Part shown: positions 20,421 through 23,956 of the stretch, in pieces
Layout: the number at the start of each line of letters is the position of its first letter
Position numbering within the stretch: the first letter of the stretch is position 1
Translations under genes and position numbers: made by a program
The notes under the pieces: generated by a model
What the model was told of the DNA's origin: nothing
The model's database searches: none
What the model saw: the letters and a program-made list of their open reading frames with translations, nothing else
Assembly: GCA_964016885.1 (NCBI GenBank)
Contig: CAXHJY010000372.1
Coordinates: 16,124-80,123, forward strand
Reading direction: 5' to 3'
Origin: Eledone cirrhosa
Taxonomy: Eukaryota
DNA length: 64,000 bases

Positions 20421-21323
20421 AGACAACTGTTGTTAAATCTTCCATATTAGAATAGTAAATAGTGACAGAGAGAGAGAAGGAGAGTGTGTAGGAGAGAGAC
20501 ACAGACAGACAGAGAGAGAGTGAGGAAGCGTGTGTGTGTGTGTGTGTGCACGTGTGTGAAGGAACGTGTGTGTGTGTGTTAGAGAGAGAGAGAAGACTGG
20601 AGGAGGAGAGAGAAAGAAAAAATGAAAACAAGAAACTGGGAAGAAGTGAGAGAAAGACAGAGGGGGAGAGAGAGAGTGAGAGAGAGAGAGGGAGAGAGAG
20701 AGCAAAGCAACTTGTGTGTGTGTGTGTGTGTGTGTGAGAGATTGGAGGAGTGTATGTGTATAAGTGTGTGTGTGTGTATGTGAGAGATTAGTGGAGCGTG
20801 TGTGAATAAGTGTGTGTGAGAGAGAGAGAGAAAGAGACGAGGCGTGTGTGTGTACGTGAGTGTGTGTGTGTGCGTGTGTTTGTCTGTGTCCGTGTGTAAG
20901 TGTGTGTAAGTGTGAGGCAGGGTGTGCGAGAGAGCGTGTGTCTGTGTAAGTGTGTGTGAGAGAGAGAGAGAGAAAGTGTGTATGTCAGGTTATGTGTAAG
21001 TGTGTGCGAGAGAGAGTGTCTGTGTGATGGTGTGTGTAAGTGTGTGCGAGAGAGAGGGTGTGTGTGTGAGAGAGAGAGAGTGGGGTGTAAGTGTGTGAGA
21101 GAGAGAGAGTGGGGTGTAAGTGTGTGAGAGAGAGAGAGTGGGGTGTAAGTGTGTGCGAGAGAGAGAGAGGGGGTGTGTGTGTGTGTAAGTGTGTGCGAGA
21201 GAGAGGGTGTGAGGGTGTGTGAGGATGTGTGAGATAGTCCAACAAGTTGTCTGGTAAAGAAGTTGCCACACGTCTCATAAGTGATATTGGTGTTACCCCG
21301 GAAGGGAGAAGACCTCACTAAGG

Positions 21324-21368
21324 ATGTATTCTGAAAAACTTCCATCTACCACGAGCGAAGGACGGAAA
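21324..21368 (+). CDS. HES1: hairy/HES1-like gene, coding exon 1, distal copy (MYSEKLPSTTSEGRK)
   Basis: AGG-ATG start with an in-frame upstream TGA, 15 codons ending ...SEGRK, then a consensus donor AAA|GTAAGT in phase 0. Splicing to 55246 gives EGRK-SSKPIMEKRRRAR, matching the HES exon1/exon2 junction (human HES1 ...ASEHRK|SSKPIMEK). Confidence 0.7.
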
Positions 21369-21397
21369 GTAAGTAATAACAATAATAACTTAATAAT

Positions 21398-21517
21398 GCT
21401 TTCATTTATTTGGCCACAAGGGCCGACATGTAGGGGACAATACCATAGGCAGGAAGAGTGGAGGGGTTTACAATAAGATTGAGTGAAAAATGCACAATAA
21501 CAAACCCCCCAAAAAAA
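21398..21517 (-). mobile_element. 5'-truncated LINE tail inserted just behind the distal exon-1 copy
   Basis: Reverse complement resembles the LINE 3' end at 13320-13390. Flanked by TAATAAT (21391-21397 / 21518-21524) as a candidate TSD. Confidence 0.55.
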
Positions 21518-21524
21518 TAATAAT

Positions 21525-21700
21525 TTATGTACTTTTGGGGGCCATCAATTACTCCAGTGCATTACTGGTACTTTATTTGACCGACCCCGTAAGGATGAAA
21601 GGCACAGTTAACCTCGGCGGGATTTGAACTCGGAACGTAAAGCGCTGTAACTCTATGCTGCAAAGCATGGTGTCTGACACTCTACCGATACTGCCAAATA
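21525..21700 (-). mobile_element. SINE family A
   Basis: Reverse complement of the family consensus. Confidence 0.8.
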
Positions 21701-21860
21701 TATTTACATTATCTTCTCATCCTTATACACAAACATACACACACTCACAGACAGACATACAAACACATACATACGCACACACACACACTATGTTTTCGTC
21801 CTGTACTGTCATAATGTTTCCTTGATGTAAACCCTTTGTGGTTACTAAAGTAATCGATAT

Positions 21861-22525
21861 GTGAAGGTGTGTGGCCTTGTGATTAGGGTGTTCAGCTCAC
21901 AATCGTAAGGTTTTGAGTTCGATTTCAGGCCGTGCGCTTTTTCCTTGACCAAGACATTGCTCCAGTCCACTGCGTCCTTAAGCAAGACACTTTATTTCAC
22001 ATTGCAACAGTCCACTGTGTCCTTAAGCAAGACACTTCATTTCACATTGCTCCAGTCCACTGTGTCCTTAAGCAAGACACTTTATTTCACGTTGCAACAG
22101 TCCACTGTGTCCTTAAGCAAGACACTTTATTTCACATTGCAACAGTCCACTGTGTCCTTAAGCAAGACACTTTATTTCACGTTGCAACAGTCCACTGTGT
22201 CCTTGAGCAAGACACTTTATTTCACATTGCAACAGTCCACTGTGTCCTTAAGCAAGACACTTCATTTCACATTGCTCCAGTCCACTGTGTCCTTAAGCAA
22301 GACACTTCATTTCACATTGCTCCAGTCCACTGTGTCCTTAAGCAAGACACTTTATTTCACATTGCAACAGTCCACTGTGTCCTTGAGCAAGACACTTTAT
22401 TTCACATTGCAACAGTCCACTGTGTCCTTAAGCAAGACACTTTATCTTCTGTTGCTCCAGTCCACTGTGTCCTTGAGCAAGACACTTTATTTCACGTTGC
22501 TCCAGTCCACTGTGTCCTTAAGCAA
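21861..22525 (+). repeat. SINE family B head followed by a 45-bp tandem array (12 full units plus a partial one) of its CORE-like segment
   Basis: Unit GTCCACTGTGTCCTTAAGCAAGACACTTTATTTCACATTGCAACA from 21965 to 22525. Confidence 0.9.
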
Positions 22526-22593
22526 GTGTGTGTGTATGTGCGTGTGTGATTCGCTGAAGGAGTGTGTGTGTATGTGTGTGTGTGATTCGCTGA

Positions 22594-22629
<36 letters not shown>

Positions 22630-23882
22630 TTCTCTGAAGGAGTGTGTGTTAAGTGTGTATGTGTGTGTATGTGCGTGTGTGATTCGCTGAAGGAGTGTGT
22701 GTGTATGTGTGTGTGTGATTCGCTGAAGGTGTGTGTGTGTGTATGTGTGTGTGTGTGATTCTCTGAAGGAGTGTGTTAAGTGTGTATGTGTGTGATTCGC
22801 TGAAGGAGTGTGTGGGTTTGGGTGTGTATAAGTGTATTTGAGAGAGAGAGATAGAGAATGAGCGAAAAGACTGGAGGACGAGAGAGAGAGAGAAAAAATA
22901 AGAACAAGAGAGGAAGAGACAGAGGAAGACAGAAAGAAAAAGAGAGAGGGTAGGAGAGTAAACCAGTGTGTGTGTGTGTGTGTGTGTGTCGGTGAGAGAG
23001 ACAGAGGGGGTAAGACAAGGGAAAGGAACGTGTGCTAGTGTGTAAGTGTGTGTGAGAGAGAGAAAGAGAGGTTGTGTGTCAGGGTGTAAGTGTGTGCGAG
23101 TGTACGTGTGTGTATGTACATGAGTGAGGCGGGGTGTAAGACAGAGTGTGTGAACGTGTGTGTAAGTGTGTGCGAGCGAGAGAGAGAGAGGGTGTGTAAG
23201 TGTACGTGTGTGTGTGCGTGCGAGAGAGTGTGGGAAGGTGTGTGTGCGAGAGAGAGAGAGGGTGTCTGTGTGAAGGTGTGTGTAAATGTGTGCGAGAGAG
23301 AGAGGAGGGTGTGTGTGTGTAAGTGTGTGCGAGAGAGAGTGTGGGAAGGTGTGTGTGCGAGAGAGAGAGAGAGGAGGGTGTGTGTGTGTGTAAGTGTGTG
23401 CGAGAGAGAGGGTGTGTGTGTGTAAGTGTGTGCGAGAGATAGGGTGTGTGCGAGAGAGAGGGTGTGTGTGTGTAAGTGTGAGAGAGAGGGTGTGTGTGTG
23501 TAAGTGTGAGAGAGAGGGTGTGTGTGTGTAAGTGTGTGCGAGAGATAGGGTGTGTGTGTGTAAGTGTGTGCGAGAGAGAGGGTGTGTGCGAGAGAGAGAG
23601 AGAGAGAGGGGGTGTGTGTGTGTAAGTGTGTGCGAGAGAGAGGGTGTGTGTGTGTAAGTGTGAGAGAGAGGGGGTGTGTGTGTGTAAGTGTGTGCGAGAG
23701 AGAGGGTGTGTGCGAGAGAGAGAGAGAGAGAGGGTGTGTGTGTGTAAGTGTGTGCGAGAGAGAGGGTGTGAGGGTGTGTGAGGATGTGTGAGATAGTCCA
23801 ACAAGTTGTCTGGTAAAGAAGTTGCCACACGTCTCATAAGTGATATTGGTGTTACCCCGGAAGGGAGAAGACCTCACTAAGG

Positions 23883-23927
23883 ATGTATTCTGAAAAACTT
23901 CCATCTACCACGAGCGAAGGACGGAAA
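23883..23927 (+). CDS. HES1: hairy/HES1-like gene, coding exon 1, proximal identical copy
   Basis: Identical to 21324-21368, including the 5'UTR and the GTAAGT donor at 23928. Confidence 0.72.
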
Positions 23928-23956
23928 GTAAGTAATAACAATAATAACTTAATAAT

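Follow-up and report, generated by a model that had tools for sequence, protein, structure and literature searches.

An exactly repeated first coding exon between diverged flanks in an octopod HES gene, probably an old tandem duplication homogenized by gene conversion

The window, i.e. the 64-kb stretch of octopod DNA analyzed here, contains a HES gene whose exons and neighboring features are listed in Table 1. AG acceptors and GT donors are present at the boundaries of exons 2, 3 and 4. The basic region of the bHLH domain reads SSKPIMEKRRR in exon 2 and thus carries the proline that is a criterion of HES / hairy-E(spl) bHLH proteins. bHLH domain with proline, Orange domain, WRPW motif and N-terminal exon are all present, as in members of the HES / hairy-E(spl) bHLH-Orange group. 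When the protein encoded by exon 4 was used as a query against 8000 scored candidates, 22 matches were retrieved, the best of which was a protein from Octopus bimaculoides with 71% identity, while none of the 22 stemmed from the source species. The C-terminus, WRPWAY (58438-58456), extends two residues beyond the usual terminal WRPW and the same is true for O. bimaculoides XP_014772623, whereas the gastropod and other homologues viewed terminate at WRPW. Exon 4 encodes a polyQ run that the O. bimaculoides protein does not have, and a polyN run that the two proteins share (58146-58190, 58358-58388). In the O. bimaculoides record P0001, exon 1 is missing and the protein starts with the methionine of exon 2.

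In the assembled sequence, this gene has its first coding exon twice. Comparison of the window with itself revealed two blocks of 223 bp that agree letter for letter at an offset of 2559. A sequence-only reading of the same DNA had reported an identity of 217 bp, which is correct and extends 6 bp further in the 5' direction. Tandem arrays excluded, the block is the sole exact repeat of such length in the window, and no third copy of exon 1 was found within the 64 kb. From 5' to 3', it comprises some 50 nt of GT/GA minisatellite, a unique leader of about 100 nt, the ATG, 15 codons (MYSEKLPSTTSEGRK), a GTAAGT donor and 29 intron bases, and ATG, codons and donor are intact in both copies. The full N-termini of XP_014772623 and of CAI9734413 from O. 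vulgaris, members of the cluster to which the best exon 4 match belongs, both begin with MHSEKLSSTTGEGRKSSKP. They are identical to the residues encoded in the block at 12 of 15 positions, differ at three, and run on into the exon 2 sequence at 55246. The assignment of the block as first coding exon of the HES gene is thereby confirmed, and the matches to Octopus place the window among octopods. In this assembly, the only one in which the arrangement is seen, the two copies of exon 1 are separated by 2.6 kb, and the upstream regions that precede them are related to one another but diverged. Judging from the sequence, either copy could be spliced to exon 2, and the same protein would then be encoded. 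The first intron (21369-55245) spans 31-34 kb, more precisely 33,877 nt from donor 1 and 31,318 nt from donor 2.

Table 1. Features of the HES locus with its two copies of exon 1 (positions refer to the window).
Feature	Position	Strand	Remarks
Copy 1 upstream region, GA/GT-rich, putative promoter, perhaps 5' leader	20586..21174	+	Homologous to 22856-23733; role suggested by position
Identical block, copy 1	21175..21397	+	Exact self-repeat
HES exon 1, coding part, copy 1, MYSEKLPSTTSEGRK	21324..21368	+	GT donor 21369; contig X4 record 17 departs at 21368
End of a high-copy repeat ("LINE tail" of the sequence-only reading), at AAT run, copy 1 only	21398..21519	-	Very high depth in its first part
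Family-A repeat, older-looking	21520..21697	-	9-14 mismatches to seven other copies compared
Family-B repeat, then 45-bp array (12.7 units) stopping mid-unit	21856..22526	+	
Boundary of the copy 1 unit with the upstream region of copy 2	22526..22527	.	No N gap
Copy 2 upstream region with own minisatellite expansions	22527..23733	+	Two TGTGGGAA matches, 23229 and 23340
Identical block, copy 2	23734..23956	+	ATG 23883, donor 23928
Young truncated family-A repeat with fourfold amplification of a 77-bp unit, at the same AAT run as the insertion in copy 1	23957..24292	-	
Family-B repeat and further sequence between 14-bp direct repeats (24387, 24660)	24387..24673	+	Probable insertion
Family-A repeat, plus strand	24720..24915	+	Predicted pairing with 24180-24292 in pre-mRNA
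HES exon 2 (basic region with Pro, helix 1)	55246..55341	+	PF00010, E 2.2e-6
HES exon 3 (helix 2)	56354..56441	+	PF00010, E 1.7e-5
HES exon 4 (Orange domain, polyQ, WRPWAY end)	57261..58456	+	PF07527, E 5.3e-14

Four runs, all in the form of assembled contigs, were compared with positions 21080-22590. A contig of 1288 nt from a second sample of organism A (X4 record 17) matches 21224-21368 over 145 nt with 0 differences, departs exactly at the donor and continues for 1101 letters. Exon 2, exon 3 and 917 nt of exon 4 likewise amount to 1101, ending at 58177 inside the CAG run, which is where such a contig is expected to break. We infer that the contig represents spliced mRNA of exons 1-4, bearing in mind that the run carries no RNA label and that a retrocopy would look alike. 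The earlier proposal that exon 1 joins position 55246 is therefore most likely correct, as the Octopus N-termini continue there and the lengths within the contig fit splicing. At its other end, 42 letters 5' of the match reach 21182, the first branching 30-mer of the window. As this position is a branch of the assembly graph, the 5' end of the contig is not a start site; transcription may in fact begin further upstream, where the two copies differ in sequence. This 5' end resides wholly within the identical block and fits both copies equally. In organism B, a contig of 258 nt (X5 record 25) aligns with 21224-21382 with 15 differences and one gap in 159 nt. Ten of the 12 differences listed fall into the leader and two are synonymous, and this single contig runs on without sign of a second copy. 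Runs X1 and X2, both from one sample, leave most of the exon uncovered, with pieces of at most about 94 nt; as a filter drops records, nothing follows from this. No contig record spans both copies in this comparison, in which the junction region was skipped as a repeat. In a run search with 21175-24400, 20 of the 23 runs listed contain part of the region, none of them at least half of its 246 words, and there is no RNA run containing it among these 23, which include the four runs compared above. A 28-nt pattern from the exon gave 0 matches in metagenome contigs.

The upstream regions of the two exons are homologous yet diverged, just as the sequence-only reading had it. In the window, AAGACTGGAGGA is present at 20593 and 22867 only, and every one of the 12 occurrences of a 17-mer minisatellite motif lies upstream of the two exons. 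A 375-nt query from the upstream region scores 179 against copy 2, compared to 125 for the best of 1243 other sequence windows, and under four shuffling schemes, a score of 179 was reached by 0, 1, 0 and 0 of 500 shuffles, respectively. A 130-nt anchor query separates less well (77 vs 69, 1248 windows). Substitutions affect 45 of 299 aligned columns; divergence amounts to 7-18% per 100-nt bin, is somewhat lower near the exon and then drops to 0/200 in the block, with the flank counts varying with the alignment of simple repeats. Substitutions also fall into non-repetitive anchors. The divergence is in line with the proposal of an old duplication, although low-complexity flank DNA mutates fast, which counts against reading divergence as age. 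Repeats inside the flanks are nearly exact, with mismatches of 0/43, 1/98, 3/40, 0/52, 0/147, 1/80, 0/102 and 0/81 between them. Raw-read noise was rejected on these grounds as the source of the flank differences, and so was a false homotype duplication, in which one copy would consist of sequence with raw-read errors. Neither upstream region contains a TATA match. A pyrimidine-tract acceptor ahead of copy 2 was not found and copy 2 is therefore unlikely to be an internal exon. Positions 20900-24500 are free of rare-cutter sites.

Behind the donors, the situation is different. Here, the sequence-only reading had seen a shared, diverged flank in the repeats following each exon, and this part of it does not stand, because neither the family-A nor the family-B copies are sisters. 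The elements concerned are dispersed high-copy repeats, for which "SINE" and "LINE tail" were labels of that reading only. Unlike repeats start at the first base past the block, 29 nt into the intron at the AAT run. The repeat end in copy 1 weakly matches another end of this type near 13290-13390. In copy 2, the family-A repeat exhibits 2-8 mismatches to six other copies in the window and 10 to that of copy 1, while the family-B copies behind the two donors differ at 22/82 positions and are no closer to each other than to other copies. From their sequences, these repeats are likely independent insertions that occurred after the split and, as such, they still argue for an old split. A downstream anchor (21698-21727 vs 24661-24695) is matched by 2 of 2551 other windows and is only suggestive.

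We assign a probability of roughly 65% to an old tandem duplication of promoter and exon 1, in which the uninterrupted unique stretch was homogenized by gene conversion. An ancient tandem duplication would have been followed by drift of the flanks, via minisatellite slippage upstream and via repeats that were inserted separately, but at one AAT run, downstream. The exon would have been left as the sole uninterrupted unique stretch still able to pair with its twin, and gene conversion in one or more tracts would have kept the block identical or made it so recently. The block is bordered by the repeat-insertion site on its right and fades into minisatellite on its left. Identity stops exactly at these barriers and conversion tracts would therefore suffice for the pattern, with no need for selection to act on the two copies. 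An identical tract within diverged homologous flanks, a mark of interlocus gene conversion, is what is found here. At 9.4% divergence, 223 nt would be free of differences with a probability of about 3e-10; at 1%, the probability is 0.11. The exon is free to change, since organism B differs at 15/159 positions and the Octopus proteins differ at 3/15 residues. Constraint alone thus hardly explains perfect identity, and of the two causes offered by the sequence-only reading, selection or conversion, the latter is favored over selection alone, in a comparison of rates that draws on one contig from one other organism. Against the conversion reading stands that the duplication is seen in this assembly only. 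In work on the tandem HMA4 copies of Arabidopsis halleri, conversion tracts are given as tens to hundreds of bases long, exon-similar, intron-divergent mosaics are described and modeled under conversion plus constraint, and at least 92% similarity is stated to be required for conversion (10.1101/2025.10.29.685298). If so, the exon copies must have stayed alike throughout, and selection on both may be needed, too. Some degree of constraint may have acted on the two copies and preserved enough similarity for conversion, which is the only indirect hint that both work.

Among the competing explanations, a false duplication fares best, even though we regard it as unlikely. Two very divergent haplotypes of the exon-1 region would have been placed in head-to-tail order by the assembly and fused at 22526, where the 45-bp array is cut mid-unit and the assembly could be mis-joined. 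False exon gains beside the true exon have been documented, are favored by heterozygous boundaries and sometimes occur without a gap after wrong gap-filling (PMC9516828). The HES locus resembles them in that an exon is repeated beside itself within a gene, and an identical exon would be expected for alleles, with the chance of 0.11 given above for 1% divergence. However, the typical marks of such gains are half depth, discordant pairs and a gap, be it in the sequence or in depth (PMC9516828), and the HES locus has no N gap; indeed, there is no N anywhere in the window. Its flanks are far more diverged than usual alleles. They differ by about 10-15% plus several insertions, compared with a heterozygosity of about 1.1% in O. 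vulgaris, another species, and a divergence of about 8% between O. vulgaris and O. bimaculoides (PMC6472339). Haplotypes that have diverged like species would differ in the exon as well, and no repeat common to both sides of the junction is present that could have guided a mis-join. If the duplication were false after all, the case would call for caution when exons are annotated in octopod assemblies.

It is improbable that purifying selection alone, without conversion, preserved the 223 bases in two working first exons. While the block does span leader, start codon and donor, with ATG and donor intact in both copies, and while the second sample is identical over 145 nt, identity also includes third codon positions, the leader, the roughly 50 nt of minisatellite and intron bases 9-29. 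In addition, organism B has changes in the leader and at two synonymous sites, and the 3' boundary coincides with the insertion site and not with any functional edge. A shade less probable again is a recent duplication, the flanks of which changed unusually fast by slippage and insertions while the exon had no time to diverge. Both flanks are indeed simple repeats with active expansions and the family-A copy behind donor 2 is young, but substitutions occur in non-repetitive anchors, too, and the family-A repeat of copy 1 is likely a long-term resident given its 9-14 mismatches to the family. Finally, consensus calling or polishing may have erased a few exon differences in a real duplication, since in this region it is only within the block that short reads would align with either copy, and this we consider very improbable, because a read covering a differing site maps to its own copy and the contig from organism A had no other letter in the exon, with the proviso that contigs drop rare variants.

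The closest known case is the hydra gene (CG1338) of Drosophila melanogaster. It has nine tandem coding first exons, some of them identical, with a DINE-1 transposon behind most exons that was duplicated along with them, and at least four of the exons are used according to 5' RACE (PMC1904467). Both loci share tandem short coding first exons together with their upstream region, identical copies and repeat sequence behind the donor, and homogenization by conversion or unequal crossing over is raised by the authors of the hydra study (PMC1904467). Hydra, however, is a young, fast-evolving testis gene, whereas the octopod gene encodes a conserved bHLH-Orange factor and has two copies of the exon, with non-sister repeats behind the donors, strongly diverged flanks and a putative use of both copies. 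Protocadherin, UGT1 and GCNT2 genes likewise feature tandem first exons with their own upstream regions and common downstream exons, and conversion among neighboring Pcdh exons is described (PMC1885805). Their exons are large and encode different N-terminal domains, while the 15 identical codons in HES provide no protein diversity (PMC1885805). A. halleri HMA4 also combines tandem copies and near-identical exons with diverged non-coding DNA; in that case, whole-gene copies are dosage-selected and backed by population evidence, as opposed to a 5' partial duplication in a single assembly (10.1101/2025.10.29.685298). The architecture as such thus has precedents. A conserved HES gene is an unusual setting for it, and so sharply bounded an island of identity within old flanks is unusual, too. 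For cephalopod HES genes, no report of first-exon duplication was found in the literature searched, mostly papers of open access.

As a tentative possibility, both copies may be active, such that an octopod HES gene of the Notch pathway would possess two differently wired promoters in front of an exon held identical by conversion. HES-1 is part of Notch signaling in squid retinal progenitors (PMC10970066). Under the two-promoter reading, copy 2 alone has TGTGGGAA sites upstream and a predicted duplex of about 110 bp behind its donor. The TGTGGGAA motif, which we take to be the CSL consensus, is matched five times in the window versus a mean of 1.66 expected, and at least five matches were obtained in 4 of 100 shuffles. 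The two matches of copy 2 belong to one duplicated unit. The excess is close to chance and a weak lead only. The duplex would be formed in the pre-mRNA by inverted family-A repeats about 500 nt apart (24180-24915). Predicted folding yields a z value of -17.7 against 20 shuffles, as expected of any such pair, and the structure is a possible editing substrate. Both donors would be included in any transcript that starts at copy 1, and use of donor 2 in it would lead to a stop after 50 codons, so that only the nearer donor should be productive. The primary transcripts would differ by 2.6 kb, which corresponds to about 8% of intron 1. At a transcription rate of about 2 kb per minute, a mammalian figure (PMC3283306), this difference would account for about 1.3 min out of 16-17 min for the first intron. 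The effect is likely small and a timing role appears doubtful.

If the duplication is real and used, a conserved developmental regulator would have gained a second promoter while its protein remained unchanged, and conversion rather than selection would hold the coding part in the midst of fast-changing repeat DNA. Should both copies be active, regulation would be split while the protein cannot diverge, amounting to a natural two-promoter experiment. The sharp end of identity at the insertion site would neatly illustrate how repeats can act as barriers to conversion.

Repeats are also conspicuous elsewhere in the window. Intron 2 of the HES gene consists almost wholly of a 72/60-bp tandem array (55371-56340), whose unit reappears in short arrays at 5395-5609 and 33336-33500 and therefore belongs to a dispersed minisatellite family. 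Intron 1 harbors a 44-bp tandem array of 15.4 units (34505-35180). A direct repeat of about 46 bp (47798-47843, 47944-47989) brackets an insert of about 100 bp and is far longer than a usual target-site duplication. Open frames at 61446-62120 and 49300-49722 (minus strand) resemble what we take to be the C-terminal end of LINE reverse-transcriptase proteins.
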